From Gammaproteobacteria bacterium (GTDB taxonomy: Bacteria > Pseudomonadota > Gammaproteobacteria > Eutrophobiales > Eutrophobiaceae), in NCBI GenBank assembly GCA_965205955.1, contig OZ242192.1, forward strand, positions 2,376,796-2,440,795: a stretch of 64,000 nucleotides of DNA, given 5' to 3'. The translations under genes were made by a program, and so were the position numbers. The notes below the pieces were generated by a model. The model saw only the letters and a list, made by a program, of their open reading frames with translations, searched no databases and was not told where the DNA came from. The first letter of the stretch is position 1. Every line of letters begins with the position of its first letter. This document shows, piece by piece, positions 1,780 to 42,428 of this stretch.

Positions 1780-1802
1780 ACGAATTCATTCTCTATCGTC
1801 AA
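1775..1802 (-). promoter_or_regulatory. sigma70-like promoter for the tracrRNA
   Basis: The minus strand has TTGACG (1802..1797), 16 nt, then TATAAT (1780..1775). The predicted start site is about 1768, roughly 18 nt upstream of the anti-repeat. Confidence 0.45.
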
Positions 1803-1818
1803 CTGTTATCTACAAAAG

Positions 1819-4800
1819 ATGGGAAAATTTACAACTCGGCTAGGTTTAGATCTCGGCACGGATTCCATCGGCTGGATGCTTTATCGGCTTGCCGATGGCG
1901 GCGAAATTGCGTCCGTCATCGGCGGCGGTGTGCGCGTTTTCTCGGAGGGACGCAACCATAAAAGTTTAGCTTCGCTAAACGCGGACCGTCGCAAAGCGCG
2001 GAGCATACGGCGCAATTTTTTCCGCAAATCGCAACGGCGCAACCGGTTGTTGCAATCGCTGGCAGAATTCGGATTGTTTCCCGCGAAAACAGAAAACGGC
2101 GAAATCATCCCCGATTACATCACTGGAAAAGCATTGGAAAAATTAGACCCGTGGCGATTGCGTGCGGAAGGAGCGGCAAGAGCATTGCCGCCGTATCATG
2201 TCGGTCGGGCGTTATTTCACTTGAATCAGCGGCGCGGTTTCAAAAGCAACGCCAAAACTGACGACGAGAGCGACAGCAAAGTCATCGGCAAAGCGCGCGA
2301 AAAATTGCGCGAGGCGCGAGGCGAATTGACGGTAGGTCAATATCTTCACTCGCGTCGCCAAAACACCGACAGCCCCAGTCATGAACGCACTGTCCGCGCT
2401 CGCCCCCTCAAAGTAACCGCAAAAGGAGTGGGAGAATATGAGCCGCTGTATCCATTTCGGGACGACATCGCAGAAGAGTTTGACAGAATCTGGGACACGC
2501 AAAAAACCGCGAATCCCGATTTTGGAAAAACCGCAAGCGGCGAATGCGGACGCGAAATAATCCGCGCGATTATCGTCGACCAGCGCGACTTAAAACCGCC
2601 GATTGTCGGCAAATGCCCCTTTTATCCCGACTTGAATCGAGCGCCGATGGCGTTGCCGTCATTTCAACGATTCCGAATTTTCAACGATTTGAATCATCTG
2701 GAATACAGCGATGAAAACGGACTCCATCAACTGATCATCGATGAGCGCGAGAAGATTCTTGATTGGCTTTTGAGCAAGAATCGGATGTCCTTTGACGACA
2801 TGCGCGAGAAAATCCTTAAAAACGAAGGGGCGAAATTCAATTACGAAAAAACCATCCGGCTGAAGCGCAATAAGAATAAACCCGAAATAAGAGAGGGAGA
2901 GGAGAAAGCGCGCCGCAAAAGCATCAACGGCGACATCACCGGCTATAAACTCCGCAACGCTCTCGGCAAGCATTGGGGCGCGCTAAAATGCGAAAGCGGA
3001 CTTTTAGCAAGTCAGGATAAATTCGTCCAGATTCTTCTGGACGAAAGTGAGGAAACTGCGCGTAAAATTCTCACCGACTGGGGATTAAGCGAGGACGAAA
3101 TTACTGCGGCATTCAAGGTGACTGCAGGATTGCCGAAAGGTCGTGCGCGTTTTTCCGGCAAAGCGATTCGGGCGTTTATTCCATATCTGGAAAAAGGAGA
3201 TTTGCTCGGCGATGCAATTGACAATGCGCAAGCCGACGGAAAAATCGGCAAACGGCACACAGACGACGGCGGCAAAATTTACGACAAACTGCCGCGCTAT
3301 CAAGAGGTCGGGCGATTGCGTCATCTTTGCCTGCCGCGAGTCCCCGAAGACGAAGACAAACCGGAAAATCAACGCATTCCCAATCCGACCGTGCATGTCG
3401 GATTAAATCAAGTGCGCGCGGTGGTGAACGACATCATTCGCATTTATGAAATTGACAACAAATCGCTGCAGATTGCGCTGGAAATTGGCCGCGATTTGCC
3501 TGTCGGCGCGAAAGGTCGCAAGGAGCGCGAAAGAGAAAACTCGGACAACCGCGACAATAGCGAGCGCATCGCTGCGCGGCTGAAAGAATTCTCAAAATTC
3601 CGCAACATGGAGACATCTGACATAATCAAGCGCCACATGCACTACATTAAGAAATGGAAACTATGGGAGGAATTATCTAAAAATTGCCTTGACCGCAAAT
3701 GCGTATTTTGCGGAAAAGTTCAAATAACCGCCAAAGATCTCGTGTCGGCGGACAGCGGAATCGAAATTGAGCACATTCTTCCGTTTAAGGAAACGCTTGA
3801 CAACGGTTACATGAATTTAACTCTGGCCTGTCAGGCATGCAATCAGGCAAAGAGAAAGAATGACCCCTATGCGGCGTTTGGCCACGATGAATCCCGCTGG
3901 CTTGGAATTCGCAAACGCGCGAGCAAATTGCCGCATGCCAAATTCGGGCGTTTTGACAAAGGCGCGTTGGAAAAGCGCAAATTTGACAAGGATTCTTTTT
4001 TGCCGCGTCAACTGCCAGAAACGCAGTATATCAGCCGTGCGGCATTGCATTATCTGCAGGCGATTTGTCCGGATGTTTATGTCATGCCGGGACGACTGAC
4101 TGGATTACTGCGAAGCAAATGGGGACTTAACAGCATCCTCGCGGATTTTCGGGGCGACGACAAAGATAAAAACATCAGCACTAAAAACCGCGAAGATCAT
4201 CGCCATCATGCGATTGACGCGGCGGTCGTCGGCGCAACGACGCGAAGCGTTTTGCAAAAAGTGGCGACGGCGGCAAATACCGGAATGGACAGTGAGCACT
4301 TGTTTTCCGATAAGGTGCCATGGCCTACCGCCGGAGAGGAAAATTTTCGGCGGATGGTGAAATCGGCAATTGGCAAAATTGTCATTTCGCACAAGCCGCG
4401 CCGTCACAAACAGGGCAAACTGCACGACGAAACGGCCTATCGCGTTGGTAAACAAGATGGCCCTTGGACTGTTGTATCCCATCACATCCCCATTTCCAAA
4501 TTGACCGCGCAAGCTCTCTACGAGGAAACGTCAGAAAACGAATTCGCGAACACATGGGGAAAAGCCGCAAAACTCCGAGACCACAAAAATTTGCGGCGGC
4601 GCCTGATTGATTGGAAAACAGAATTCGGCGGCGATTTCAAAAAAGCTCTTGAAAAAGCGCGCGAATGCGGAATCCGCCGAGTTGAGGTAATGGAGCGAAA
4701 ACGAGCAGATTCGCTAATCCCAATTCGCCATAAAGGAAAAGGCGGCGACGGCGGAGTCAAGCATTACTTACCCGGCAGCAATTGGGCGTACGAAATTCGC

Positions 4801-5199
4801 CTTTGCCACAACGGACTATGGGAAGGCAAAGCCATCACCACCTTTGAAGCAAACGCTCGCAAAGCAGCCGATGAGACATCAGAGCCGCTCCCGCTTGTCA
4901 TGCGTCTACACCGCGGTGACATGGTGATTTTGCAAAACCCTAATGACAATGACTTGAAGAAATTGAGCAAGAAACACGGCTCAATAATCGGATATGTCAC
5001 TCAAATCAGTGACGGTTATGTCGCAATTGCAGAACATACTGATGCGGTTCCGGATAGTCGGAGTCGAAAAAATGACAACAGCCAGAGCCGCTTCATCTTT
5101 CTCACTTCGGGAGATGTTTTTCGAACACGAAAAGTGCGGAAGATAGATGTCAGCCCGGCGGGATTAATTCGGAAAAACCCCATTCCCACAAACCAATGA
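1819..5199 (+). CDS. cas9: Cas9 endonuclease, about 1127 aa, RuvC and HNH motifs intact
   Basis: RuvC-I: MGKFTTRLGLDLGTDSIGWML. Arg-rich bridge helix: RRKARSIRRNFFRKSQRRNRLL. RuvC-II: LQIALEIGRDL. HNH: IEIEHILPFKETLDNGYMNLTLACQACNQAKRKND, with CVFCG and CQAC zinc-ribbon cysteines. RuvC-III: HRHHAIDAAVVGATT. The gene overlaps the cas1 start (ATGA). Confidence 0.92.
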   Translation: MGKFTTRLGLDLGTDSIGWMLYRLADGGEIASVIGGGVRVFSEGRNHKSLASLNADRRKARSIRRNFFRKSQRRNRLLQSLAEFGLFPAKTENGEIIPDYITGKALEKLDPWRLRAEGAARALPPYHVGRALFHLNQRRGFKSNAKTDDESDSKVIGKAREKLREARGELTVGQYLHSRRQNTDSPSHERTVRARPLKVTAKGVGEYEPLYPFRDDIAEEFDRIWDTQKTANPDFGKTASGECGREIIRAIIVDQRDLKPPIVGKCPFYPDLNRAPMALPSFQRFRIFNDLNHLEYSDENGLHQLIIDEREKILDWLLSKNRMSFDDMREKILKNEGAKFNYEKTIRLKRNKNKPEIREGEEKARRKSINGDITGYKLRNALGKHWGALKCESGLLASQDKFVQILLDESEETARKILTDWGLSEDEITAAFKVTAGLPKGRARFSGKAIRAFIPYLEKGDLLGDAIDNAQADGKIGKRHTDDGGKIYDKLPRYQEVGRLRHLCLPRVPEDEDKPENQRIPNPTVHVGLNQVRAVVNDIIRIYEIDNKSLQIALEIGRDLPVGAKGRKERERENSDNRDNSERIAARLKEFSKFRNMETSDIIKRHMHYIKKWKLWEELSKNCLDRKCVFCGKVQITAKDLVSADSGIEIEHILPFKETLDNGYMNLTLACQACNQAKRKNDPYAAFGHDESRWLGIRKRASKLPHAKFGRFDKGALEKRKFDKDSFLPRQLPETQYISRAALHYLQAICPDVYVMPGRLTGLLRSKWGLNSILADFRGDDKDKNISTKNREDHRHHAIDAAVVGATTRSVLQKVATAANTGMDSEHLFSDKVPWPTAGEENFRRMVKSAIGKIVISHKPRRHKQGKLHDETAYRVGKQDGPWTVVSHHIPISKLTAQALYEETSENEFANTWGKAAKLRDHKNLRRRLIDWKTEFGGDFKKALEKARECGIRRVEVMERKRADSLIPIRHKGKGGDGGVKHYLPGSNWAYEIRLCHNGLWEGKAITTFEANARKAADETSEPLPLVMRLHRGDMVILQNPNDNDLKKLSKKHGSIIGYVTQISDGYVAIAEHTDAVPDSRSRKNDNSQSRFIFLTSGDVFRTRKVRKIDVSPAGLIRKNPIPTNQ

Positions 5200-6119
5200 C
5201 CGGGCGCATTGTTGAAATTGCCGAGGGCGGACGGCATCTCTCGCTGCATCGCGGATTTATGGAAGTGCGCCACAACGATGAATTGCTCGCGCGAATTCCG
5301 CTTGATGATTTGCTTGCCGTTATCGTCAGCGGACACGGCTGCACGCATTCTTCCAATCTTATCGCCGCTTTCGCCGAGCGCGGAACGCCTTTTATTATCT
5401 GCGCCGCAAACTATCAGCCGATTGCATGGACGATTCCGCTGTTCGGCCATCATGCGCAAAGCGCGCGAATGCAGGCGCAGGCCAGAGCTAAACTTCCTCT
5501 CAAAAAACGGCTGTGGCAGCAAGTTGTCCGCACCAAAATCAGCAATCAGGCCGCAGTGTTGGAGGTATTCGGTAGTGGCGGCAACCGATTGAAAAGGCTT
5601 TCAACTAATGTGCGCTCCGGAGACCCGTCTAATGTGGAAGCGCAAGCTGCAAGATATTATTGGAGTGCACTGTTCCCTGACAGATTCTCGCGCAATAAAA
5701 ACGGCGGAGGCATTAATTCTCTCTTGAATTACGGCTACGCGATAATTCGCTCGTGCGTCGCAAGAGGCGTGACGGCGGCGGGATTACATCCGACGATTGG
5801 CATTCATCATCGTGGGCCGACCAATCCAATGTGTCTTGTGGACGATCTGATGGAACCGTTTCGTCCGCTTGCCGATTGCGTTGTTCGGAATCTCATCGAC
5901 AAAGGAATCCATGAAATCAGCCCCGATGTTAAAAGGATTCTCGCTTCGCTCGCCGTGATGGACATGCCCGGTCCGTCCGGCGTAACAACTTTGTTTACCG
6001 CCGCCGCACGGTTTGCCACTTCACTCGCGCAAATTCTAATGGGCGAAAATTCATCTTTGGAAACGCCGCAAATGCCGACACCGCTTACGCTGTTGTCAGT
6101 TGCCGACGGCAATGACTGA
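5196..6119 (+). CDS. cas1: Cas1 integrase
   Basis: 307 aa with typical Cas1 motifs: EAQAARYYW, SLLNYGYAIIRSCVARGV, HPTIGIHHRG and CLVDDLMEPFRP. The start ATG overlaps the cas9 stop. Confidence 0.9.
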   Translation: MTGRIVEIAEGGRHLSLHRGFMEVRHNDELLARIPLDDLLAVIVSGHGCTHSSNLIAAFAERGTPFIICAANYQPIAWTIPLFGHHAQSARMQAQARAKLPLKKRLWQQVVRTKISNQAAVLEVFGSGGNRLKRLSTNVRSGDPSNVEAQAARYYWSALFPDRFSRNKNGGGINSLLNYGYAIIRSCVARGVTAAGLHPTIGIHHRGPTNPMCLVDDLMEPFRPLADCVVRNLIDKGIHEISPDVKRILASLAVMDMPGPSGVTTLFTAAARFATSLAQILMGENSSLETPQMPTPLTLLSVADGND

Positions 6120-6228
6120 AGGCTAAGCAGCTATCGTATAATGCGGCATCGTTTGCGCCCCCCCGCATGATGACTGAAATATTGAGTAGCTATCGGATAA
6201 TGTGGATGTTTGTGATGTTTGAGACCTG
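6113..6228. repeat. diverged 58-bp tandem duplication of the cas1-stop/cas2-start junction
   Basis: Unit 1 (6113-6170) is atgactgaaggctaagcAGCTATCGtATAATGcgg.... Unit 2 (6171-6228) is atgactgaaatattgagtAGCTATCGgATAATGtgg.... Unit 1 retains only a 4-codon relic, ATGACTGAAGGCTAA, overlapping the cas1 stop. Unit 2 supplies the cas2 start, MMTEILSSYR. Confidence 0.6.
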
Positions 6229-6504
6229 CCGGTGGGAACGAAAAAAGAACGCACTCAGGCAACCAGTTTTCGCAATCATCTGCTCGGTCTTGGGTTTGAA
6301 ATGGTGCAGTTTTCTGTTTATTCGCGTTTCTGCTCAGGTAAGGAGCGCGTGGAAACCTTGGCGCAACAAGTCGCCGCGAATCTGCCGGTGGGCGGTAAAG
6401 TGGACATCCTTTCATTTACCGACAAGCAGTACGAAAACATTATCAGCTTTGAAGGGCGCACACCGCAAACGCGTGAAAAACCGCATCAACTCACGCTGCT
6501 ATGA
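6167..6504 (+). pseudogene. cas2: cas2 with a frameshift (net +2/-1 nt near 6221-6226), or a sequencing error in an otherwise intact cas2
   Basis: Frame A from ATG 6167/6170 gives MMTEILSSYRIMWMFVMFE.... Frame B from 6223 gives DLPVGTKKERTQATSFRNHLLGLGFEMVQFSVYSRFCSGKERVETL...GKVDILSFTDKQYENIISFEG. Together they are colinear with S. pyogenes Cas2 ([47 protein letters not shown]...[22 protein letters not shown]). Deleting GA from tttGAGAcctg restores ATG TTT GAC CTG CCG, which is M F D L P. In frame B a TGA at 6220-6222 sits just upstream of the first Cas2-like codon. Confidence 0.6.
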
Positions 6505-6577
6505 ATCGAATCGCCGCGTTTTTTGGAAGGGAATCGCCCTCGTTTTTCCCGCAAATTCAATGGGATAGACAAGGACG

Positions 6578-7802
6578 ATTGTAACACACAAGGAAATGCG
6601 GTCTCACCGCAACGGAATCCCGGAATTAGCAAAGCACTATTTTATTGTAACACACAAGGAAATGCGGTCTCACCGCAACTTTGCTCCAGATACCTGTATA
6701 TAACTGGTTAATTGTAACACACAAGGAAATGCGGTCTCACCGCAACTGACTCTCTTGAGGACCGCCGACGCGCCGAATTGTAACACACAAGGAAATGCGG
6801 TCTCACCGCAACGCTTTGGCGATACTGGCAAGAGCGTGATAGATTGTAACACACAAGGAAATGCGGTCTCACCGCAACCTAAAATGCAACTGATAGGGAT
6901 GCTGTGTCATTGTAACACACAAGGAAATGCGGTCTCACCGCAACTTGAAATGTCACAACCCCCGCAAGTATTATATTGTAACACACAAGGAAATGCGGTC
7001 TCACCGCAACGCCGGTGTTGCGTTCGAGCGCCTGCATTTGATTGTAACACACAAGGAAATGCGGTCTCACCGCAACGATATTTCGATGCTGAAGGTGCCT
7101 CGGCTGATTGTAACACACAAGGAAATGCGGTCTCACCGCAACTGATTTGCAAAATGAGGTAGATCGTTGTATATTGTAACACACAAGGAAATGCGGTCTC
7201 ACCGCAACACTCACTCTCTTCAATCTTGCTCTGTAGTCATTGTAACACACAAGGAAATGCGGTCTCACCGCAACAGCAACAATCGTGCCAGAAAACCTAA
7301 AAGTATTGTAACACACAAGGAAATGCGGTCTCACCGCAACGGCGCATTATTGAAAGCCCGCACGTGTAACATTGTAACACACAAGGAAATGCGGTCTCAC
7401 CGCAACTGAAGAAACCTACTACCAAAAAATACGTCAATTGTAACACACAAGGAAATGCGGTCTCACCGCAACGAAAAGAGATTTGCCCCAAAGCGGACTA
7501 TCATTGTAACACACAAGGAAATGCGGTCTCACCGCAACTAATAGGTGTTATGCGCCATGCCTGTGGGTATTGTAACACACAAGGAAATGCGGTCTCACCG
7601 CAACCACAAACAACGGCTTATGTCAAGTTTTGCTATTGTAACACACAAGGAAATGCGGTCTCACCGCAACAGTCATTGAGTCTCAGGCAGTAGCTATCCT
7701 ATTGTAACACACAAGGAAATGCGGTCTCACCGCAACAGTCATCAAGGCCGGGCTGGCCACCCTTTGATTATAACCCACAAGGAAATGCCACTTCACCGCA
7801 AC
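6578..7802 (-). CRISPR. CRISPR array of 19 repeats (36 bp) and 18 spacers (30-31 bp); the terminal repeat (7767-7802) is degenerate; transcribed on the minus strand from promoters embedded in each repeat
   Basis: The plus-strand repeat ATTGTAACACACAAGGAAATGCGGTCTCACCGCAAC starts at 6578, 6644, 6711, 6777, 6843, 6909, 6975, 7041, 7107, 7173, 7239, 7305, 7371, 7437, 7503, 7569, 7635 and 7701. A degenerate copy, attataacccacaaggaaatgccacttcaccgcaac, is at 7767. The reverse complement GTTGCGGTGAGACCGCATTTCCTTGTGTGTTACAAT ends in an extended -10 (TGnTACAAT). The N. meningitidis II-C repeat does the same (GTTGTAGCTCCCTTTCTCATTTCGCAGTGCTACAAT). Confidence 0.95.
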
Positions 7803-7896
7803 CGGTGCAATGTTAGCCCTTGAGTGATAATCAGCTTTGCACCGAACCCGACTGCGGCTATAATAGGCCGTTAATTCTCTGTGGCCTGGACCGATA

Positions 7897-17588: not shown

Positions 17589-18578
17589 TCAGGTCTTATT
17601 CGAAACATCGCGAGAATCATCGTGGCGTTCCCGCATAGTCTGCCGACCAAGATAGGTCGGCACTACCGCCTCGATACTGGTGGGAACAATCTGATAGGCC
17701 CGCAACGCATTCGTTTCACAGATGCTGTCTTTCCTGGTGGAATTATAATTATCCATCGAAAAGGGCTTCTCCATGCCGAAAAGACCGTATACAAATCCGA
17801 ACAAGTCAAAAATGCCGGCCTGCAGGCGGGATAAAATATCGGGCAATGGGATCAGGATGCGGTTGCGGCCGGTTTGCTTCATCGTGTAGCGCACCAGTTC
17901 TTCAAGCGTATAATCCGCCGGCCCGCACAAATCGAGGCGTTTTCCATAGCTGTCCCGATCATTGAGCAAACGGGCTATTACTTCCACAACATCGATAACA
18001 TATACCGGCGCAAATCGCGCACCGGGGCAAGCCAGTGGAAAAAATACCGGTGTGATTTTCAGCAGCCCGGCAAAGCGGTTAAAGAAACTGTCACGGTAGC
18101 CGAAAATAACCGAAGGTCTGAAGCTGGTGACTTTTATCCCATACTCGTTTTGATGCAGCAATTCCTCCGCCCGGCCCTTGCTGCGCAAATAATGACTCGC
18201 TCCATTTTCTGCATCCGCATTCAATCCGCTCATTTGCAGGAGCCTCTTTATATTATTCTGCCGGCAGGCCTCCAGCAGCTTCTCGGCCAATGCTACATGC
18301 GCATGATGAAAGCCGCGGCCCTTGCGGCCCCGTTCATTGAGTATTCCGACCAAATTTATCACCGCATCACAGCCTGCAAGCTGCCGCGTCAATTGCTGCG
18401 GATCATGAATATCCGCTTCGACTAAATCGAGATCAGGGATCAAGATGGTGTTGCTGCGATTATATTCCCGGTTGCGGGTCAGGACGCGCAATAGATAGCC
18501 CTCTTTTGCCAATCGATTGCAAAGACTGACACCTACGAAGCCGGTGCCACCGAGTATCCCGATGCGACGAATGATCAT
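17589..18578 (-). CDS. NAD(P)H-binding epimerase/dehydratase-fold protein, complex I NDUFA9-like
   Basis: IGILGGTGFVGVSLCNRL is a Rossmann fold; 329 aa. Confidence 0.65.
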   Translation of the reverse strand: MIIRRIGILGGTGFVGVSLCNRLAKEGYLLRVLTRNREYNRSNTILIPDLDLVEADIHDPQQLTRQLAGCDAVINLVGILNERGRKGRGFHHAHVALAEKLLEACRQNNIKRLLQMSGLNADAENGASHYLRSKGRAEELLHQNEYGIKVTSFRPSVIFGYRDSFFNRFAGLLKITPVFFPLACPGARFAPVYVIDVVEVIARLLNDRDSYGKRLDLCGPADYTLEELVRYTMKQTGRNRILIPLPDILSRLQAGIFDLFGFVYGLFGMEKPFSMDNYNSTRKDSICETNALRAYQIVPTSIEAVVPTYLGRQTMRERHDDSRDVSNKT

Positions 18579-18581
18579 CGT

Positions 18582-20567
18582 CTAATTCCGATAAGAAACC
18601 TGCCGGTCGAAACAACGCGATCCGGCATCCACGGATTTTTTGCCGTCTGTACCCGCAGACATTCGCTGCGAAATCGGCACGATAGCGCCGTCCATGCGCC
18701 AGTCATAAACACTCGCAAAATAAAACACACGGCGAACATATTTTCGCGTTTCCTTGTAGGGGATTTTTTCGACCCATACATCCGGCGCCTCGCAATCATT
18801 TCCCTGAGAAAGCCAGGTCTTTACCCGATGCGGCCCGGCATTATACGCCGCGGTAGCCAGTACCATATTGCCTTTGAATTTATCCAGCATCATCCGTAAA
18901 TAAGCGCTGCCTATCGGCACATTGGTTTCAGCCTGTCTCAATTTTCCGGTTTTGAAATTCTTCAAACCGATACGCTTCGCCACCATTTTACCCGTTGCCG
19001 GCATGACCTGCATTAAACCCAATGCGCCGGCAGGTGATTTTACATTTTCCATAAACGCACTTTCGGCGCGAACCAGACCAAACATCCAGTTTGAATCGAG
19101 CCCCCTTTTCCCCGCATATTTGCCCAGCAGATCCTCATACAGGATGGGAAAACGCAATACCAGATCATCATAGGCACGAGCCTTGCCCAAGGTCATGATA
19201 ACGCGATCATGCCAGCCCCATTTTGTCGCCAGCATCGCCGCGATCTGCATTTGACGGCTGGTCAATGTATCCAGGCAGTGGAGCCATTCGCGGCTGGCCG
19301 CATTGGGCATATCCAACCGGTAAAACTCATACGCGCGCTGCATTGCCGGAACAGCGGCAATGCGGTCCATTTCGCCGGGATTCAGCGACAATGAAAAATA
19401 ATTCATACTGTACTGCCGCTTGATGCGATCGGCCGCAATAAAGCCATAATAATCCCTTTCAGTCGCCAACTGTGCATAGATCCGCTTCGCCTTTTCAGTG
19501 GCGCCGGTTTCCTCCAATGCCCTGGCATGCCAGTACTTCCAGCGCAATTCGATCTTTTCCGTAGCAGGCTGATCTTCCGTCCAGCGCCTGAGCAAATACC
19601 AATCGGGCACATGCAATGCAGTGCGCAGACGCCAATGAAAAACCTCTTCATCGACCATGCCGTTATCAATGCGGTCCAGCAAAGCGACCGTCATCGGGTG
19701 CTGGTTTGCGGCTGCGCTGACGGCGAGCAACCTATCCAGGCCCGACCGCTCCGCCGGCATAAAGACATACTGTTTCTGCAACGCTTCCCAGCGATCGATT
19801 GCCCTGGAGAGATTTCGCTTGGCCAGCCGCCCAATGCCATGAACCAATATCTCCCGGTTGATGGGCGTATCGCCAAATTTCCCCCTATCCATCACCCTGG
19901 CAGGATCCTTATGTACCGCTATCCATTGTGCCGCCCACTTCCTGTGTTCGGCATCCAGGCGCCTGGCCAGATAATTCGCCAGACCCGGTTGATTATTGCC
20001 CATCGCCAGCCGAATGCGTTGCCAAATCAGTTCATCAGTCATCAAATCGCTTTTATAGAGAAGCTCGAAAGCCGGATCGCACTTAGGCGGCTGCGACTTG
20101 CCCACCAGCCAGAGCGTGCGAATATCTTCCAGCAAATGGTCCTCATCGCCCGTCTCCATTCTTGCCCGAAGCTGGTAGCATTGCAGCACCGCACTCTTCT
20201 GCGGTGTATAGCTGGTCAGAAAACTTTTCCAGCGGCCTCCCCGGGCAAGATGTTTAAGCCAGGTAATACGCAGGCTGTTGGCAACCGGCAAATCATCATG
20301 CCGCTCAAGAAAATTCACCACATCGATTTCCTTCACCTTCCAGAGTCTGGACTTGAGATAGTCATACCGCAAATAGGGATACAGCGGATAATCCTTCAAA
20401 CCGTCGGCCAGACGATTAAATTCTGTAATCTGATTTTTTGCCAATGCCCGTTTCGCCGCAAGGTAGTCCTGGCGCTGCAAAGTACGCGACTCGGCAAAAC
20501 CTGCAGATGGGCCGGCGATGATCGTTACAATGATTAGAAAAATACAGCCCCTTGCTACTCGTTTCAC
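18582..20567 (-). CDS. slt: soluble lytic murein transglycosylase (Slt70 family)
   Basis: Signal peptide, a superhelical N-domain, and the C-terminal catalytic motif GALGLMQVMPATGKMVAKRIG...AYNAGPHRV. Confidence 0.85.
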   Translation of the reverse strand: MKRVARGCIFLIIVTIIAGPSAGFAESRTLQRQDYLAAKRALAKNQITEFNRLADGLKDYPLYPYLRYDYLKSRLWKVKEIDVVNFLERHDDLPVANSLRITWLKHLARGGRWKSFLTSYTPQKSAVLQCYQLRARMETGDEDHLLEDIRTLWLVGKSQPPKCDPAFELLYKSDLMTDELIWQRIRLAMGNNQPGLANYLARRLDAEHRKWAAQWIAVHKDPARVMDRGKFGDTPINREILVHGIGRLAKRNLSRAIDRWEALQKQYVFMPAERSGLDRLLAVSAAANQHPMTVALLDRIDNGMVDEEVFHWRLRTALHVPDWYLLRRWTEDQPATEKIELRWKYWHARALEETGATEKAKRIYAQLATERDYYGFIAADRIKRQYSMNYFSLSLNPGEMDRIAAVPAMQRAYEFYRLDMPNAASREWLHCLDTLTSRQMQIAAMLATKWGWHDRVIMTLGKARAYDDLVLRFPILYEDLLGKYAGKRGLDSNWMFGLVRAESAFMENVKSPAGALGLMQVMPATGKMVAKRIGLKNFKTGKLRQAETNVPIGSAYLRMMLDKFKGNMVLATAAYNAGPHRVKTWLSQGNDCEAPDVWVEKIPYKETRKYVRRVFYFASVYDWRMDGAIVPISQRMSAGTDGKKSVDAGSRCFDRQVSYRN

Positions 20568-20660
20568 TAATTGCTCCCGGAAAATGTTTGAATCAACTAT
20601 TAATTTAATACTTTAATAATTTTTCTTATTTGTATCAAATTATTTAATTTTCTCCATTAA

Positions 20661-20843
20661 TATCACGGCATCTTATACTTGAAATCATCAAAAAATGAAG
20701 CCAAACAAGCCTTTTATAAAAAAGTGGTTGAAAATTTATCCAGAGATCCCGGGATCAAACCTGAAAATATCTTTATTCCCATCACAGAAAATCACGACGT
20801 TGACTTTTCCTTTAAGGACGGAATAGCTCAATTTGTGGTCTAA
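20661..20843 (+). pseudogene. orphan C-terminal fragment of a tautomerase-family protein, with no ATG start
   Basis: The frame reads ...EAKQAFYKKVVENLSRDPGIKPENIFIPITENHDVDFSFKDGIAQFVV*. Immediately upstream, an in-frame TAA lies at 20658-20660 and there is no Met. Confidence 0.3.
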
Positions 20844-20922
20844 AAAATCGAGATAACAATACGCGCCACCGCCCGCAGACAGGCGCATTATACCCCGACG
20901 CGATTGGCTTGACAAATCAAAA

Positions 20923-21013
20923 GGAGCACAGGCATTCCTGCCTGTGTTTTTTTTCGCGGGCAGGAATGCCCACGCTCCTGTGTTTTTTTCGCGGGCAGGA
21001 ATGCCCACGCTCC
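20923..21013 (+). terminator. long imperfect hairpin plus T-run, then a second direct copy of the 35-bp right arm
   Basis: GGAGCACAGGCATTCCTGCC (20923-20942) pairs with GGCAGGAATGCCCACGCTCC (20959-20978) and is followed by tgtgttttttt. The unit tgtgtttttttcgcgggcaggaatgcccacgctcc is present twice (20943-20978 and 20979-21013). Confidence 0.45.
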
Positions 21014-21035
21014 GGTTGCCGACGCGGATTGATCG

Positions 21036-21648
21036 CGGCATATAATGGGATATATATGGTTATATTGGCATATAAATTGTTATAAATTACTATAAACTTT
21101 GAGACAGACATCATGGAAAACCCGTCAAGGCGGTCAGCGCACGGCATATAATGGGCTATATATAGTTATATTGGCATATAAATTGTTATAAATTACTATA
21201 AACTTTGAGACAGACATCATGGAAAACCCGTCAAGGCAGTCAGCGCACGGCATATAATGGGCTATATATGGTTATATTGGCATATAAATTGTTATAAATT
21301 ACTATAAACTTTGAGACAGACGTCATGGAAAACCCGTCAAGGCGGTCAGTGCGCGGCATATAATGGGATATATATGGTTATATTGGCATATAAATTGTTA
21401 TAAATTACTATAAACCTTGAGACAGACATCATAGAAAACCCGTCAAGGCGGTCAGTACGCGGCATATAATGGGATATATATGGTTATATTGGCATATAAA
21501 TTGTTATAAATTACTATAAACTTTGAGACAGACATCATGGAAAACCCGTCAAGGCGGTCAGCGCACGGCATATAATGGGCTATATATGGTTATATTCATG
21601 TATAAATTACTATAAGTACACAAGATGGAAGTCATGGAAAACCCCTTT
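21036..21648. repeat. tandem repeat of five complete 106-bp units plus a partial sixth, carrying the promoter, RBS and first codons of the downstream ATPase gene
   Basis: Units start at 21036, 21142, 21248, 21354, 21460 and 21566. Each unit contains cggcaTATAATggg, TTGGCA-N17-TACTAT and gacatcATGGAAAACCCGtcaagg...taa. That last element is a 12-codon mini-ORF, MENPSRRSAHGI*. The sixth unit has a roughly 10-bp deletion and runs into the real gene start, atggaagtcATGGAAAACCCC. In the fifth unit the mini-ORF ATG is mutated to ATA. Confidence 0.9.
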
Positions 21649-22800
21649 TCTCCGGGGGCGGGAACGTCTCCTCCCGAACTTGTCGGGCGGGAGGAGGCTT
21701 TGGAGCAGGCTCGCATTCTGTTTGGCAGGGTCAAACTTGGGCGTTCTGGAAAGAGCATGCTGCTTACCGGCTTGCGCGGTGTCGGTAAAACCGTTCTGTT
21801 GAACCGGATGGAAAAAATGTCTCAGTCCGAAGGATATCGGTCCATTAATATCGAGGCGTCCGAAGACAAGCCGCTTGCTTCCCTGCTGGTTCCCTCTTTG
21901 CGGAAACTGCTTTTTGACTTGGACAGGATGGAGGGCGCGGGCAAAAAAGTCCGCCGCGCTCTGGCGGTTTTGCTGGGTTTTGTCGGCGCCGTCAAAGTGT
22001 CTGTAGGGGATTTGAGTATCGGTCTGGAGCTGGAACCGGAACGCGGAACGGCGGATAGTGGGGATATGGAGGTCGATTTGCCGGACTTGTTCACGGTTAT
22101 TGCCGAAGCCGCGCAGGAAAGAGGAACGGCAGTCGCCATTCTTATTGATGAAGTGCAATACTTGGAGAAATCCGAGTTTGGCGCTCTTATAATGGCGATG
22201 CACAAGATGCAGCAGCGTCAGTTGCCACTGGTTCTTATCGGCGCCGGTCTACCTGTTTTGCCGGGTCTTGCGGGCAATATAAGATCGTATGCGGAACGGC
22301 TATTCGATTTTCCGCAGGTGGGCGCTTTGTCCGAGGAAGACGCCGATATGGCTTTGCAGAAGCCGGTTCAGGAAAAAGGAGTCAGTTTTGAATCCGCCGC
22401 TTTAAGGGAGATTTTTAGATGGGCGCGCGGATACCCTTATTTCATTCAGGAGTGGGGCCATCAAGTGTGGAATCAGGCCGAGGTTTCGCCGATCACGCTG
22501 GCCGTCGTGCAGGCGGCCTCACAAACCGTAACCCTCCGTCTTGACAAGAATTTTTTCCGTGTCCGGTTTGACCGACTGACTCCAAGAGAAAAAGAGTTTC
22601 TGCGGGCGATGGCTGAGGTTGAGGGCGACAACAAGCGCACCAATGATGTTGCGTCTTTCCTGGGATTGCCGATTACAAGGGTGGGGCCCGCACGCGCAAA
22701 CCTGATTAACAAGGGCATGATATACAGCCCGTCACACGGGTATCTGGCTTTTACCGTGCCGTTGTTTGGCGAGTTTATGCGGCGGGCGATGCCGGATTGA
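21625..22800 (+). CDS. AAA+ ATPase of the archaeal-type ATPase family (PF01637-like) with a C-terminal winged-helix domain (DUF234-like)
   Basis: FSPGAGTSPPELVGREEALEQARILF; Walker A LTGLRGVGKT; Walker B AILIDEVQYLE; C-terminal RLTPREKEFLRAMAEVEG. An alternative start is at 21634. Confidence 0.7.
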   Translation: MEVMENPFSPGAGTSPPELVGREEALEQARILFGRVKLGRSGKSMLLTGLRGVGKTVLLNRMEKMSQSEGYRSINIEASEDKPLASLLVPSLRKLLFDLDRMEGAGKKVRRALAVLLGFVGAVKVSVGDLSIGLELEPERGTADSGDMEVDLPDLFTVIAEAAQERGTAVAILIDEVQYLEKSEFGALIMAMHKMQQRQLPLVLIGAGLPVLPGLAGNIRSYAERLFDFPQVGALSEEDADMALQKPVQEKGVSFESAALREIFRWARGYPYFIQEWGHQVWNQAEVSPITLAVVQAASQTVTLRLDKNFFRVRFDRLTPREKEFLRAMAEVEGDNKRTNDVASFLGLPITRVGPARANLINKGMIYSPSHGYLAFTVPLFGEFMRRAMPD

Positions 22801-22827: not shown

Positions 22828-25800
22828 TCACACCGCCGCCCACGCATCCGCCATCAATTCCGCCTGTTCCAGCACCCTGTCGGCTGCCAGTTTCTGCTCA
22901 TCGGGCGGATAGCCGTATTTTTTCAGCAGCCGTTTAACGACGGTTCTCAGCTTTGCCCGTGCGCTCTCTTTTATCGTCCAGTCAATTGAGGTGTTCTTTT
23001 TCACGCTCTCGGCAAGGGTTTGCGCAAGCGCCCGCAAAGTGTCATCGGTCATCACTTCTTTTGCGCTCGCATTCATCGCCAGCGCGTCATAAAACGCGAC
23101 TTCATCCTCGGACAGCCCCATATCAACCGCCCGTTCATCGGCCGTTCTGATCTCTTTGGCCATCAGGATCAACTCCTCGATCACCTGCGCCGCCGTCAGC
23201 AGATTGTTTTTGTATCTCCGGATCGCATCCTCGAGCATCTCGGAAAACCTTCTGCTTTGCGCGAGGTTCTTTCGCGTTCGGGTCTGTATCTCATCGGCGA
23301 GGATTTTTTTGAGCAGTTCCAGCGCGAGGTTTTTGCGCTGCATTCCGCGTATCTCCTCGAGGAAATCATCGGACAGGATCGATATGTCGGGCTTTTTGAT
23401 TCCGGCCGCGTCAAAAATATCAATCACGCCGTCCACCACCACCGCCCGGTCAACGATCTGCCGGATTGCGCTTTCCATCTCCGCCCCGCTTACGCCGCTG
23501 CCGTCCCGTTCAAATTTTGTCAGCCGCGCCTTTACCGCCTGAAAAAATCCGACCTCCGCCTTTATCCCCATCGCACGCGGATCGGGAACCGAAAGCGCAA
23601 ACGCCTTCGACAGCAGCACGACCTCACGGGTAAACCTTTCCTTACCGTCCTCAAGACCGAGAATATATTCCTCGGCCTCCAGAATCAGCCTCATCTTTTC
23701 TCCGGCTTTGGCATCGGCGCGGAAGTATTGCCTGTAATCAAACCTGCCAAACATGGCGGCGACCACATCGTATTTTTCCAGCATCTTCGTAACCGCTGTT
23801 TCCTGCTCAAACGCCGGCGTTCCGCCGCCACCGTTTTTCGTGTATGCGCCCAGCGCCCGCTTCAAATCCGAGGCGATGCCAATATAGTCAACCACCAGTC
23901 CGCCGGGCTTGTCCTTGTAAACCCGGTTCACGCGGGCGATTGCCTGCATCAGGTTGTGTCCGCTCATGATCTTGTCAACATAGATGGCGCCCAGACACGG
24001 CGCATCAAAACCCGTCAGCCACATATCGCGCACAATCACCAGTTGCAACGGATCGGTCGGATCCTTGAATCGTTCCCCGAGCGCTTTCCGCTCCGACTTC
24101 GTGGTCGCGTGTTTGTGCCACTCGGCGGGGTCGCTCGAGGATGAGGTCATCACCACCTTTATTGCGCCCTTGTCTTTATCGTCATCGTGCCATTGCGGAC
24201 GCAGGGCGGTTATCTCAGCATACATCTCCACCGCAATGCGGCGGCTCGTGGCGACTATCATCGCCTTGCCTTCAAAGGCTTCCCGCCTGGTTTCAACGTG
24301 GCGCACAATATCCGCCACAACGGTTTTGATGCGGTCCTTGTGCCCGATAATCGCTTCCTGTTTCGTCCATTTGGCCTTGGCTTTTTCGATTGCGGTCGCC
24401 TCCTCGCTTTCGGTTATCTGCTCGATCTCGGCGTCCAGTTCTTCCTTCTCTTCCTGTTTGAGATGCACTTCGACAAGACGCGACTCATAGTAGATGGCCA
24501 CGGTCGCCTTGTCTGTAACCGCCTGCTCGATGTCGTAGACATCTATGTAGTTGCCGAAAACCGCCGGCGTTGAGATGTCTTCTTTCTCAATAGGAGTTCC
24601 GGTAAATCCGATGAAAGAAGATTCGGGAAGGGCATCTCTCAGGTATTTGGCAAAACCGTATTTTGTCCTCACCCCGTCTTTGACAAAATGGGTTTTTGCC
24701 CCGAATCCGTACTGGCTGCGATGCGCTTCGTCGGCGATGACAACGATATTCTTTCTATCCGATAGCAGTTCAAAATTTTCATTTCCTTCTTCAGGTGAAA
24801 ACTTCTGAATGGTCGAAAACACGATGCCGCCGCCCGCCGTTTTCAAAAGCCGCTTCAAATGCTCGCGGCTTTCCGCCTGCTTCGGCTCCTGGCGCAGCAG
24901 ATTTCTGCCCGCCGCAAAGGCCCCGAACAGCTGATCATCGAGATCGTTGCGGTCGGTAATCACAACGATGGTAGGGTTTTCCATTTCCCGATTGACAACC
25001 AGCAGTCCGGCATAAAAAACCATCGCAAGCGATTTTCCGCTGCCCTGCGTGTGCCACACAACGCCCGCCTTGCGGTCTCCTTTCGGCTGATCTTTGACGC
25101 CGGGCAGTCCGTATTTTTGCGGATCTTCCTCTACGGGCAAGCTGACCCTCTTTCCCCCGTGGGATGCTCTTATTGTGGATTCAACCGCTTTTTTAACCGC
25201 ATGGTATTGATGATAGGCGGCGATTTTCTTGATAGTGATGACTTTCGTCATGCTACCACCCTCTCTTCCGTCTCTCCCAGAGGGAGAGAAACTTTTTTGA
25301 GGCAGGGTGTTTTCAATTTTTTGGAGGACTTCCTGTATATTGTTCAGCAGGTCTTTGTTTTTAAATCGCAGGACGGTATTTCCGAGACTTTTCAGAAATT
25401 TGTCTCTTTTTGCGTCTTCTTGTGTCTCCGTATTGTGGACTTCACCGTCAAGTTCAATGATCAGTTTTTCGGAGTGGCAATAAAAGTCGGCGATATAATG
25501 CCCTATTTGGTGCTGTCTCCTGAATTTCAATCCGTTAAACCTTTTATTTCTAAGCAACTCCCAAAAAATTTCTTCCGTTTCGGTCTGCTTTTCCCGTAAC
25601 TCCTTCACCCGCTCAATCATCCCCGCAAACCGCATCCCCGCCCGATAATGCCCCTCCTCACTCTCCCCACCATTCCCAATCCCCCTCCTCTCCCTCTGGG
25701 AGAGGCCGGGAGAGGGTATCAACGGAGTTGATTCAGCAGGAATCAACTCCGTTGATTTCTCAAACACGGTAAAGTGCCGGATCAAATCAATCAGCACATT

Positions 25801-26514
25801 CGGGCGCAGCATTCCCCTGATAACAGTTTCAAGCCAGGGCGTTGTCGCAGGGTCTTCCCTTTCACCGTCCACGGTTTTCCAGGCCATAAAGCGGTTCCAG
25901 CCCGCCGTCAGTGAACCGGCCCTGGCATCGAGTCCGTCCGAGGCCACGAGCACACCGTTATAGCAGAACAGACTCGGTATCGTTTCTTTGTAGTTTTGCA
26001 GTTGATCGAACGCCTTTTGAACGGTTGCCTGTTCATCGGTCGGGTTTTTCAATTCAATCACCGCCATCGGCAGGCCGTTTATGAACACGACAACATCGGG
26101 GCGCTTGGTGGTGTTGTTTTCGGTAACCGTGAACTGATTGCAGACTGCAAGGTTGTTGTTGTGCGGATTTTTAAAGTCAATCAGCCGGACTCTCGCGCCG
26201 ACCGTTTCGCCGTCCTTTTGGTACTCTTCGGCGACACCTTCGACCAGCATTCGATAGAACTCCTGATTGCTTGCAATCAGGTTGTGACCGGAAAGGGAAA
26301 GCACCTGCCGTATCGCCTGCTGCCGCACACCGTTTGGAACCTTCGGATTAAGATTGTCAATCGCGGTTTTGAGGCGGTTGCGCAAAACCACATCGGCAAC
26401 GCCGTCTCTTTCGGTTTCCTGTTGTTCGGGGGGAATGTAGGCGTAACCCTGCTTTTCAAGCAGTTCTACCGCAAACTTTTCCACGTCCGATTCGTAGAGA
26501 GCGGTCATGTGCAA
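22828..26514 (-). CDS. hsdR: type I restriction enzyme R subunit HsdR, with a roughly 165-aa in-frame DUF559 insertion
   Basis: 1228 aa. The N-terminal nuclease/HsdR-N region runs ...LIDLIRHFTVFE. The SF2 motor has the AAYHQYHAV, GSGKS and DEAH-like motifs, and a C-terminal helical domain follows. Between aa 255 and 422 lies FWELLRNKRFNGLKFRRQHQIGHYIADFYCHSEKLIIELDGEVHNTETQEDAKRDKFLKSLGNTVLRFKNKDLL, a complete DUF559 (Vsr-like endonuclease fold) module. Confidence 0.9.
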   Translation of the reverse strand: MHMTALYESDVEKFAVELLEKQGYAYIPPEQQETERDGVADVVLRNRLKTAIDNLNPKVPNGVRQQAIRQVLSLSGHNLIASNQEFYRMLVEGVAEEYQKDGETVGARVRLIDFKNPHNNNLAVCNQFTVTENNTTKRPDVVVFINGLPMAVIELKNPTDEQATVQKAFDQLQNYKETIPSLFCYNGVLVASDGLDARAGSLTAGWNRFMAWKTVDGEREDPATTPWLETVIRGMLRPNVLIDLIRHFTVFEKSTELIPAESTPLIPSPGLSQRERRGIGNGGESEEGHYRAGMRFAGMIERVKELREKQTETEEIFWELLRNKRFNGLKFRRQHQIGHYIADFYCHSEKLIIELDGEVHNTETQEDAKRDKFLKSLGNTVLRFKNKDLLNNIQEVLQKIENTLPQKSFSPSGRDGREGGSMTKVITIKKIAAYHQYHAVKKAVESTIRASHGGKRVSLPVEEDPQKYGLPGVKDQPKGDRKAGVVWHTQGSGKSLAMVFYAGLLVVNREMENPTIVVITDRNDLDDQLFGAFAAGRNLLRQEPKQAESREHLKRLLKTAGGGIVFSTIQKFSPEEGNENFELLSDRKNIVVIADEAHRSQYGFGAKTHFVKDGVRTKYGFAKYLRDALPESSFIGFTGTPIEKEDISTPAVFGNYIDVYDIEQAVTDKATVAIYYESRLVEVHLKQEEKEELDAEIEQITESEEATAIEKAKAKWTKQEAIIGHKDRIKTVVADIVRHVETRREAFEGKAMIVATSRRIAVEMYAEITALRPQWHDDDKDKGAIKVVMTSSSSDPAEWHKHATTKSERKALGERFKDPTDPLQLVIVRDMWLTGFDAPCLGAIYVDKIMSGHNLMQAIARVNRVYKDKPGGLVVDYIGIASDLKRALGAYTKNGGGGTPAFEQETAVTKMLEKYDVVAAMFGRFDYRQYFRADAKAGEKMRLILEAEEYILGLEDGKERFTREVVLLSKAFALSVPDPRAMGIKAEVGFFQAVKARLTKFERDGSGVSGAEMESAIRQIVDRAVVVDGVIDIFDAAGIKKPDISILSDDFLEEIRGMQRKNLALELLKKILADEIQTRTRKNLAQSRRFSEMLEDAIRRYKNNLLTAAQVIEELILMAKEIRTADERAVDMGLSEDEVAFYDALAMNASAKEVMTDDTLRALAQTLAESVKKNTSIDWTIKESARAKLRTVVKRLLKKYGYPPDEQKLAADRVLEQAELMADAWAAV
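25252..25756 (-). mobile_element. in-frame DUF559 endonuclease-like module inside hsdR, bounded by inverted 19-bp hairpin elements
   Basis: Hairpin A (25271-25289) is tctctccc-aga-gggagaga. Hairpin B (25687-25705) is cctctccc-tct-gggagagg, roughly the reverse complement of A. An adjacent 16-bp perfect hairpin, ATCAACGGAGTTGATT-cagcagg-AATCAACTCCGTTGAT, lies at 25718-25756. The DUF559 coding sequence lies between A and B. Confidence 0.45.
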
Positions 26515-27754: not shown

Positions 27755-27892
27755 GGCTGATTGTTAGTCAAGTATGCGGCTAATTGTTAGTTTAGGGTAT
27801 GGCTGATTGTTAGTGTGGAGTGCGGCTGATTGTTAGTCAAGTATACGGCCAATTGCAAGCTCAGGGGGTGGATGATTGCAAGATCAGGGGGG
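27755..27892. repeat. six tandem 23-bp repeats in the promoter/5' region of the DUF4143-ATPase and hsdR operon
   Basis: The units are GGCTGATTGTTAGTCAAGTATGC, GGCTAATTGTTAGTTTAGGGTAT, GGCTGATTGTTAGTGTGGAGTGC, GGCTGATTGTTAGTCAAGTATAC, GGCCAATTGCAAGCTCAGGGGGT and GGATGATTGCAAGATCAGGGGGG. They begin 6 bp upstream of the ATG at 27749. On the minus strand each unit carries a TTGACT (-35-like) element. Confidence 0.7.
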
Positions 27893-40562: not shown

Positions 40563-42023
40563 CTATTGGGCTGTTAGTATCACCTTGATGGAATTTATTA
40601 TTGCTTTGATGTAATCGCTGAATGCTTCCGCATGCTTTCCCCGGGCGAATTTTGCGCCTCCCCGTTTGGTGTATGCCTGGATATATTGCGGGTCGATTGC
40701 AATCGCCTTGCCGTAGTCTTCAATGGCTTCCGCATGCTTTTGCAAAGCGGATTTTGCAAGCCCGCGCTTGTTATATGCCCCCGCATCCCGGGGGTTGATT
40801 GCAATGGCCTTGCTGTAGTCTTCAATGGCTTCCTCATGCTTTTGCAAAAATGATTTTGCAAATCCACGGTTGTTGTATGCCCTCGCATCCTGGGGGGTGA
40901 TTTCCGTTGCTCTGGTGTAGTCCTCAATGGCTTCCGCATGCTTTTGCAAAGCGAATTTTGCAAGTCCACGGTTGTTGTATGAGTCTGCTTCCTGCGGATT
41001 GATTTCAATTGCCTTGTTGTAGTCTTCAATGGCTTCCGCATGCTTTTGCAAAAATGATTTTGTAAGTCCGCGAATGTGGTATGCCCGGGCATCCTGGGAG
41101 TTGATTTCAATTGCCTTGCTGTAGTCTTTAATGGCTTCCGCATGCTTTCCCAAAGTCGATTTTACAAGTCCGCTGATGTGGTATCCTGATTCATCCTCTG
41201 GATTGGTTTCACTTGCCTTGCCGTACCCTCTACGGACTTCCGCACGCTTTCCCGAAGCAGATTTTTCATTGCCCCGGTTGTGGTGTGCCTGGGTACCTTT
41301 CAGGGCGATTTCAATTGCTTTTTTGTAGTCTTCAATGGCTTCCTTAAAATTTTCCAAAGCAGATTTTGTGTCGGCCCGGCTGGTGTATGCCTGGATATAT
41401 TGCGGGTTGATTTCAATTGCCTTGCTGTAGTCTTCAATGGCTTCCGTATATTCTTCTAAAGAATATTTGGCATTGCCCCGGTCGTGGTATATCTGGGTAC
41501 CTTGCGGGTCTAATTCAATTGCCTTGTTATAGTCTTCAATGGCTTCCGCGTGATTTCCCAAATCAGATTTTGCATTGCCCCGGTTGTGGTATGACCGGGC
41601 ATCTTGCGGGTTTAATGCAATTGCCTGAGTATAGTCATCAATGGCTTCCGTATATCTTTCTAAATAATATCTGGCAACACCCCTGTACTTCAATTGCTTT
41701 ATTTTTATGATTCGCCTTGTTATTGCGCCAACTAAAAGGATGAGTATGATACAGCTCAATATTACCCGATTGGATTTTAAATACTGTATTATTGGTTGGA
41801 TGTAGCCCTTGCTTGCTTCCGGATGTTTTCCCAAATCAGATTTTGCATTGCCCTCATTATAGAGTACCCCGACATCTTGCCGGTTGTTTTCAGCCAGTGG
41901 CTGGACCGGTGAAATATTGAGTGCCGCTCCTCCCCCGAAAAACAGGATGATGACCAGGGCACATGGCAAACCTGACCGGGGGAAAACATACCTAATAGAA
42001 GAAAAAACCTCATTCATTCGCAT
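40563..42023 (-). CDS. tetratricopeptide-repeat protein with an N-terminal signal/TM segment; internal 102-bp DNA-level repeats
   Basis: More than 10 consecutive TPR units (...AYHIRGLTKSFLQKHAEAIEDYNKAIEINPQ...). The nucleotide repeats of gcttccgcatgcttttgcaaa... are nearly identical, which suggests recent intragenic expansion. Confidence 0.7.
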   Translation of the reverse strand: MRMNEVFSSIRYVFPRSGLPCALVIILFFGGGAALNISPVQPLAENNRQDVGVLYNEGNAKSDLGKHPEASKGYIQPIIQYLKSNRVILSCIILILLVGAITRRIIKIKQLKYRGVARYYLERYTEAIDDYTQAIALNPQDARSYHNRGNAKSDLGNHAEAIEDYNKAIELDPQGTQIYHDRGNAKYSLEEYTEAIEDYSKAIEINPQYIQAYTSRADTKSALENFKEAIEDYKKAIEIALKGTQAHHNRGNEKSASGKRAEVRRGYGKASETNPEDESGYHISGLVKSTLGKHAEAIKDYSKAIEINSQDARAYHIRGLTKSFLQKHAEAIEDYNKAIEINPQEADSYNNRGLAKFALQKHAEAIEDYTRATEITPQDARAYNNRGFAKSFLQKHEEAIEDYSKAIAINPRDAGAYNKRGLAKSALQKHAEAIEDYGKAIAIDPQYIQAYTKRGGAKFARGKHAEAFSDYIKAIINSIKVILTAQ

Positions 42024-42428
42024 ACCTGTAACTCTCCAAAGAAATAAATTGCCAAAAAAGACCGGGCGGTGCGGCGCGTTGTGATGGATGGCTACCAATG
42101 CCCAAGTATACAAGTTACCAAAAAATTCATAAATTGCAACAGTGAAGCAGGAATGTATTGCATTGGGAAGGAGAGGGATATCCGGCCGGGGACAACCTGT
42201 GTTCGACTGCGTCTATATTGCTGCAGAGCTTGTTTGCTATTTGCAACAACCGGTTTGCGCAATTGTCCGCTGTTGCGGAACGGCTTTTTCACGGGCTTGC
42301 TGTAGGTAAAAATGATTTCTCCCGGGGAAGGGCTTTATAGTAGCGTATTATGATTACAGGGTGGCAGCGTTGGAATTCCGGTCATTGTAACCCGCACTGC
42401 TTTTGGGGAGCCTTTTTTCTGTGACTTT

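Follow-up and report, generated by a model that had tools for sequence, protein, structure and literature searches.

Promoter tandem repeats have been described in Mycobacterium tuberculosis, in which dop, lpdA and cysG are preceded by units of 54-58 bp (Modlin et al. 2025, PMC12817950). These repeats adjoin leaderless promoters, their copy number is variable both between and within strains, and expression has been proposed to scale with it (PMC12817950). Here we describe an array of 106-bp units upstream of an ATPase gene in a 64,000-nucleotide stretch of DNA from an uncultured gammaproteobacterium (assembly GCA_965205955.1, contig OZ242192.1, positions 2,376,796 to 2,440,795 of the forward strand), referred to here as the window and numbered from its first letter. 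With slightly more confidence than doubt, we regard the array as a promoter tandem repeat, that is, a variable-number tandem repeat (VNTR) of the minisatellite type. As in M. tuberculosis, promoter-bearing units of tens of bp stand head-to-tail upstream of a gene, the array varies between lineages, and the gene appears to have little or no leader. The window array differs in having a unit that, at 106 bp, is about twice as long, that includes four codons of the gene and thereby gives one mini-ORF (ORF, open reading frame) per unit, and that is itself built of 10-bp sub-repeats; in addition, it is the gene-proximal copy that is the consensus-defective one, and the variation of the window array is known between lineages only.

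Similar in form are the mycobacterial interspersed repetitive units (MIRUs), minisatellites of tandem intergenic 40-100-bp units whose small ORFs run in the same direction as the flanking gene; MIRUs are dispersed over many loci. The window array likewise consists of tandem intergenic units with small ORFs oriented as the flanking gene, but its unit occupies a single locus. Within the window the unit is restricted to one place, and a scan of a genome collection with a motif specific to the junction between units, CATRGAAAACCCGTCAAGGC, found one true locus, L006 (L numbers denote loci in other assemblies). The same motif gave four matches in a metagenome scan, all in unrelated sequence and attributable to chance, and no match in a viral collection. 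Copies at several loci, of the kind expected for dispersed repeats such as MIRUs, repetitive extragenic palindromic (REP) elements or miniature inverted-repeat transposable elements, were seen neither in the window nor in the genome-collection scan.

The array is composed of five full 106-bp units (21036-21565, + strand) followed by a divergent sixth copy next to the gene (21566-21644). Tandem Repeats Finder reports a period of 106 over 21036-21596, with 5.3 copies, 95% matches, 0 indels and a score of 1031, and cutting the array in register yields units at 21036-21141, 21142-21247, 21248-21353, 21354-21459 and 21460-21565. The sixth copy keeps the consensus for 31 bp, then diverges, and resumes it at TCATGGAAAACCC (21632-21644); it has one 10-bp sub-repeat fewer than the full units and retains the start codon conserved in the family (ATG 21625) together with TCATGGAAAACCC. 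Exactly five occurrences of a 33-nt core and four of a 44-nt junction were counted, against an expectation of 0 from dinucleotide-preserving shuffles, which confirms the tandem 106-bp repeat, with five full units and a degenerate sixth, claimed in a first-pass annotation made from the sequence alone. The G+C content of the array is 35%, compared with 48.6% for the window. Units differ from one another at 0-8 of 106 positions, with unit 1 identical to unit 5, and individual units can be told apart by single-nucleotide polymorphisms (SNPs). Compared by eye, the 18-bp junction, GTCAAGGCGGTCAGCGCA, shares 9 of 18 positions with the left flank (GCCGACGCGGATTGATCG) and about 7 of 18 with codons 8-13 of the gene.

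Related genomes carry the same array with fewer units. In L003 and L006, the latter a metagenome-assembled genome of Ca. Poriferihabitaceae (Gammaproteobacteria), genes for ATPases ~89% identical to that of the window are preceded by the 106-bp unit of the window, along with its 18-bp junction and divergent proximal copy, but by only two full upstream units, and more distant orthologues (L002, L004 and L005; 77-86% identical) have a single upstream region. Copy number therefore differs by lineage, from five full units in the window and L001 to two in L003 and L006. To this extent the array is copy-number-variable, as had been proposed for it as one of two readings, albeit between related lineages: L001, a second assembly of the strain background, has the same 5.3 copies as the window.

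In L001, the locus lies on a 1.72-Mb contig of an independent ENA assembly. Its sequence agrees with that of the window without a single difference over 17625-22336, the whole array included; from 22337 on, the two diverge by 1-2%, within the ATPase gene and across the neighbouring hsdR. This identity followed by divergence indicates that L001 was assembled independently, from a distinct strain whose restriction-modification (R-M) allele is recombinant. The recombination breakpoint between the window and L001, at 22337, falls inside the ATPase gene, and the L001 allele of that gene has a 1-bp insertion after 22682 that causes a frameshift and truncates the C-terminal domain.

Assemblies are known to go wrong at tandem repeats, and a spuriously collapsed or expanded repeat was the concern raised in the first-pass annotation. 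Such an artefact is barely credible here. Nothing specific to this array points to it, the same 5.3-copy array is present in L001, which is itself 1-2% off the window from 22337, distinct SNPs mark the units, and homologous arrays of two full units and one proximal copy are found in two further assemblies.

Between the window and its relatives, units differ at 8-16 of 106 positions (8-12 when compared with unit 2 of the relatives and 10-16 with unit 1), and the two units within L003 have 14 differences between them. Differences that number 0-8 within the window array and 8-16 between lineages indicate that the duplication is old and shared, and that the window lineage later expanded or homogenized its array.

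Embedded in every full unit is a sigma-70-like -35/-10 pair. A consensus scan scored TTGGCA-N17-TACTAT (9/12 consensus) once in each of units 1-5 (-35/-10-like pairs at 21065-21093, 21171-21199, 21277-21305, 21383-21411 and 21489-21517) and none in the sixth copy. Position by position, the full units are colinear with the single upstream region of each of the orthologues L002, L004 and L005, in which a TTGACT or TTGCCT hexamer, a 17-nt spacer and a TACTAT or TATCAT hexamer end 10 nt before the ATG. Among the relatives, the scan scored TTGACA-17-TACTAT in unit 2 of L003 and TTGACT-17-TACTAT in L005, and the block TATAAATTACTATAAAC, which includes the -10 element, is invariant across all nine full units of the window, L003 and L006. 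Colinearity with the single-copy promoters of the orthologues bears out the earlier proposal that the units hold the promoter of the gene, and supports the view that they are genuine copies of it. In the window, L003 and L006, the proximal copy lacks one 10-bp sub-repeat and no -35/-10 pair was scored in it. The upstream copies therefore keep the ancestral promoter geometry without the true start codon, and the proximal copy keeps the start codon with an altered promoter. Taken together, the locus has head-to-tail copies beyond chance, the promoter of the gene within the unit, and a copy number that differs between related genomes, as is characteristic of a promoter VNTR.

No canonical Shine-Dalgarno sequence was seen by eye before the ATG of the gene or before that of the mini-ORFs, at variance with the ribosome-binding site that had been annotated in each unit. 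Because the -10 element of the orthologues lies so close to the ATG and a Shine-Dalgarno sequence is lacking, the sequence suggests that the ATPase mRNA is near-leaderless.

Our proposal for the origin of the array starts from a compact promoter/operator of the ATPase gene, which comprises five to six 10-bp sub-repeats and an embedded sigma-70-like TTGAC[A/T]-N17-TACTAT element. The promoter region, together with codons 4-7 and the 18-bp junction, would have been duplicated head-to-tail by unequal recombination or replication slippage, first to two and then to five extra co-directional copies, so that the gene now follows a terminator-like hairpin and as many as six promoter/operator copies, all co-directional. 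Gain or loss of units would change the dosage of promoters and operators and, probably, the expression of the ATPase. We infer promoter activity, the recombination mechanism and the effect on expression, including its direction, from the arrangement of these elements.

Several points weigh against a role for copy number in expression. Over its 59 non-coding bp, the proximal copy shows no difference between the window, L003 and L006, whereas the upstream units are 5-11% different. This is a hint that constraint acts on the proximal copy as the promoter actually in use, but the contrast is not significant, since a divergence hot spot within the gene apart, the background is only ~4%. Transcripts with long leaders, starting in upstream units, might be translated poorly, so that more copies would not necessarily give more protein, and tandem promoters are able to interfere with one another. 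Finally, the only other assembly of the strain background of the window has the same copy number.

The array may also be a neutral minisatellite, in which a repetitive, recombination-prone promoter was amplified without function, the gene is driven by the proximal copy alone, and the upstream copies are left to drift. We consider this plausible but less likely; it accounts for the invariance of the proximal 59 bp alongside upstream units that differ at 8-16 of 106 positions, for the degraded -35 elements in unit 1 of L003 and L006 (TTTGCG and TTTGCA), and for mini-ORFs that are unconserved and in one case have lost their ATG; the frameshifted ATPase of L001 likewise shows that selection on the locus is not absolute. 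Drift of the upstream copies is harder to reconcile with the -35/-10 pairs, which remain scoreable in all five units of the window and in unit 2 of L003 and L006 but not in the proximal copy, and with the invariance of TATAAATTACTATAAAC and its -10 element in all nine full units.

Overlapping the ends of the units are mini-ORFs of 12 codons and a stop, present in units 1, 2, 3 and 5 (21113-21151, 21219-21257, 21325-21363 and 21537-21575). The encoded peptide is MENPSRRSAHGI in unit 1, MENPSRQSAHGI in unit 2 (ending in ...SRQSAHGI) and MENPSRRSVRGI in unit 3 (ending in ...SRRSVRGI). Across units and lineages the variants RRSAHGI, RQSAHGI, RRSVRGI, RRPVLDI and RRPVPDI are found, which reflect non-synonymous changes. 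The first-pass annotation was right to place mini-ORFs in four of the five full units, but not in giving all of them the peptide MENPSRRSAHGI, from which units 2 and 3 depart; the change from ATG to ATA that it recorded is indeed present in one full unit, but in unit 4 (at 21431) and not in the fifth. Nor do the units carry the first four codons of the gene, as it had stated: the mini-ORFs begin at codon 4, and the shared ATGGAAAACCC corresponds to codons 4-7, counted from the family-conserved start at ATG 21625, and the full units read ACA where that ATG would lie. The mini-ORFs would be by-products of where the duplication breakpoints fell. Recurrent 39-aa ORFs on the minus strand of each unit were dismissed as a mechanical by-product of the repeat.

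Having four in-frame ATG...TAA mini-ORFs in a putative leader raises the prospect of stacked upstream ORFs (uORFs), or leader peptides, whose translation regulates the ATPase, as the first-pass annotation had offered as an alternative; we judge this highly improbable. Their peptides change non-synonymously between units and lineages, unit 4 reads ATA, and the single-copy orthologues have no uORF at all, so that no conserved uORF can be recognized. The last stop codon lies 50 nt before the ATG of the gene, too far for coupling, and, as noted above, no Shine-Dalgarno sequence was seen by eye. A scan of 21036-21760 found no terminator-like site on the + strand, and the leader RNA folds with a z-score of -2.45, its strongest predicted stem falling within the coding region, so that no terminator/antiterminator structure is apparent in the leader. 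A search of Rfam gave no match at the gathering score; sub-threshold hairpin matches were confined to 20914-20986, with none in the array.

Downstream of the array is the ATPase gene (21625-22800, + strand), which encodes a protein of 391 aa. Its start was placed at ATG 21625 by an N-terminal alignment of 41 homologues, in which M1, N6, P7 and F8 are invariant. The protein passes the Pfam cut-off for PF13191 AAA_16 (56.8 bits versus 32.6). PF01637 ATPase_2 scores 24.7 bits, below its gathering cut-off of 33.2, and TIGR02928 scores 26 bits where 181 are needed. There is no NCBIfam family for the protein, all matches lying far below their cut-offs, and no PADLOC defence family, the closest being a weak, partial match to mad8 (24.9 bits); a sequence search of the PDB returned no chain at E < 0.1. 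The gene is under purifying selection, with a ratio of non-synonymous to synonymous substitution rates (dN/dS) of 0.24-0.35.

An AlphaFold2 model of the ATPase (predicted local distance difference test, pLDDT, 78.7; predicted template modelling score, pTM, 0.73) has an AAA+ fold followed by a C-terminal helical domain. Structural matches found with Foldseek are RuvB, Orc1/Cdc6 (E about 1e-7 to 1e-6) and the archaeal ATPases 2qen and 2fna, the latter two having the best TM-scores (query/target-normalized 0.54/0.59 for 2qen and 0.49/0.54 for 2fna). In RuvB, Orc1/Cdc6, 2qen and 2fna, all of them AAA+ proteins, the C-terminal domain is a winged helix, and we read the C-terminal helical domain of the model in the same way. 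The protein shares this predicted architecture of an AAA+ fold and a C-terminal helical domain with the archaeal PF01637 ATPases and Orc1/Cdc6, but is sub-threshold for PF01637 by sequence; the earlier label of PF01637/DUF234-like is thus supported by structural resemblance to 2qen and 2fna and not by Pfam, according to which the gene is AAA_16. A literature search on PF01637/DUF234 retrieved only unrelated papers on DUF2345 in type VI secretion.

The family is large, with 949 clusters at 50% identity (E < 1e-30). It is also unusually conserved: its matches are ~67% identical, and the few source names among them span several phyla, which suggests frequent horizontal transfer of the ATPase as a single-gene module. 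In L017, L019 and L020, the gene stands alone among housekeeping genes, and elsewhere it adjoins mobile or defence-type genes; in L011, for instance, a UvrD helicase gene extends across its stop codon. When viral contigs were scanned with the protein, the single relative recovered was truncated, distant and uninformative. Within the gene, comparison of the window with L003 and L006 reveals a divergence hot spot at ~21796-21976 (codons ~58-118), with ~24% nucleotide differences over 180 bp versus ~4% elsewhere, which suggests that this segment is mosaic or fast-evolving.

Each promoter of the array consists of five to six phased 10-bp direct repeats of TATA type. A block of 10-bp direct repeats is also located directly upstream of the start codon in all nine independent single-copy loci examined, each from another assembly (L002, L004, L005, L011, L012, L014, L017, L019 and L020), for example as AGATATAAAT four times in L011 and GTATAAATTnCTATAAAT in L012 and L014. 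Averaged over these nine loci, the self-match stands out at lag 10 (0.53) and lag 20 (0.46), other lags giving ~0.25-0.35, and a value as high as that observed did not occur in any of 2000 shuffles. Short phased repeats are therefore conserved beside the gene across its homologues, as is typical of iterons. Direct repeats of other kinds precede two further ATPase genes. The paralogue ATPase-A, which is present in L003 and L006, has a different promoter-proximal repeat (ACTAAAT, with an ~18-bp period; 1300-1382 in L003 and 4413-4454 in L006). A second, unrelated ATPase of the island in the window, of the AAA_14/DUF4143 type (PADLOC PDC-S01), is preceded by four 23-bp repeats (core ACTAACAATCAGCC, 27755-27849), which end 5 nt before its ATG at 27749 on the minus strand.

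Tandem short direct repeats that act as operators are known from plasmids, examples being Rep iterons and, in plasmid R1, the parC iterons to which ParR binds. The sub-repeats resemble these in being direct repeats of about one helical turn that overlap a promoter, beside the gene for a predicted DNA-binding protein. They differ in that the adjacent protein is a predicted AAA+/winged-helix ATPase and not a ribbon-helix-helix or Rep protein, in that no partition or replication genes are present, and in that the 106-bp higher-order repeat has no counterpart in the plasmid systems.

On this comparison, the array could be an amplified set of operators, in which the 10-bp repeats bind a protein, most plausibly the adjacent ATPase in autoregulation, and the increase from ~5 to ~30 sites shifts the autoregulatory set-point or enlarges a nucleoprotein platform. 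We consider this unlikely as an account of the array. It would be consistent with the lag-10 periodic block upstream of the start codon in all nine single-copy loci, with the resemblance of the predicted ATPase fold to Orc1/Cdc6, RuvB and 2qen/2fna, and with the separate upstream repeats of ATPase-A and of the AAA_14/DUF4143 ATPase. It is just as possible that these AT-rich phased repeats act as UP-element-like or curved promoter DNA, or that a host nucleoid protein binds them, and since they overlap -10-like hexamers, promoter function alone may conserve them. More speculatively phrased, and rather doubtful to us, is the idea that the ATPase binds the 10-bp iterons cooperatively, in the manner of ORC or DnaA, such that the gene and its repeats form an autoregulated DNA-binding module mobile between genomes, whose platform the array would amplify from ~5 to ~30 sites, with a change in its set-point.

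The array belongs to a sequence module shared with the relatives. The left end of the module common to L003 and L006 (CCCCGAYGCGATTGGCTTGACAAATCAAA...) is at 20893-20922 (+ strand; window 20880-21045 aligned with L003 1200-1300), and to the left of it are a tautomerase fragment in the window and a luciferase-like gene in L003. Located between this end and the array is a long, GC-rich hairpin followed by T-runs (20923-21013, + strand), which contains a 35-bp duplication of 2.1 copies (Tandem Repeats Finder, 20941-21013) and has a predicted folding energy of -60.1 kcal/mol (z = -6.4). The homologous hairpin of L003 was scored as a + strand terminator. We take the hairpin to be terminator-like or REP-like, and it probably insulates the array from upstream transcription.

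The hairpin element, GGAGCACRGGCATTCCTGCC...GGCAGGAATGCCCACGCTCC, occurs twice in L003 (1240-1290 and 2575-2650). In L003 and L006, the ATPase-A gene lies upstream of the array, and the hairpin with the flank GGTTGCCGACnnGGATTGAnCGCGGCRTATAATG precedes both ATPase-A and the array. A deletion of ATPase-A through recombination between the two hairpin/flank copies would explain the arrangement in the window, with the hairpin element as its probable substrate.

Further to the left, the gene order is CCA-adding enzyme, epimerase, soluble lytic transglycosylase and truncated tautomerase fragment, followed by the hairpin and the array. The tautomerase remnant (20679-20843) is a 54-aa ORF that matches positions 41-81 of the 82-position Tautomerase_2 profile and lies to the left of the island boundary at ~20893. 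On the right, convergent with the ATPase gene, is hsdR (22828-26514, - strand; Pfam HSDR_N, SWI2_SNF2 and T1RH-like_C), which marks the start of a type I R-M island containing the usual embedded genes; the array was thus correctly placed at the edge of the island beside hsdR by the first-pass annotation. Inserted between the HSDR_N nuclease and the SWI2/SNF2 motor of HsdR is a DUF559 (Vsr-like endonuclease) domain (aa 302-404), which is also present in the HsdR of L001; the hsdR of L003 gave no DUF559 match.

Two other repeat-containing loci were seen in the window. A type II-C-like CRISPR-Cas locus (1744-7803) encodes Cas9 (1151 aa; RuvC_III, HNH and Cas9_a) and Cas1, followed by an array of ~18 copies of the 36-bp repeat ATTGTAACACACAAGGAAATGCGGTCTCACCGCAAC with a 66-bp period. 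Tandem repeats of 102 bp and 306 bp at 40624-41650 are coding and correspond to the 34-aa TPR repeats of a 516-aa protein (40563-42113, - strand).

Taken alone, the array would add a further example, from an uncultured organism, to the promoter VNTRs of bacteria. It is mainly of value as a natural allelic series, of three versus six promoter copies, for studying the effect of promoter dosage on a possibly near-leaderless gene. The conserved 10-bp block beside the genes of a large, uncharacterized ATPase family is a more useful lead than the array itself and provides a testable hypothesis for the binding target of the protein.

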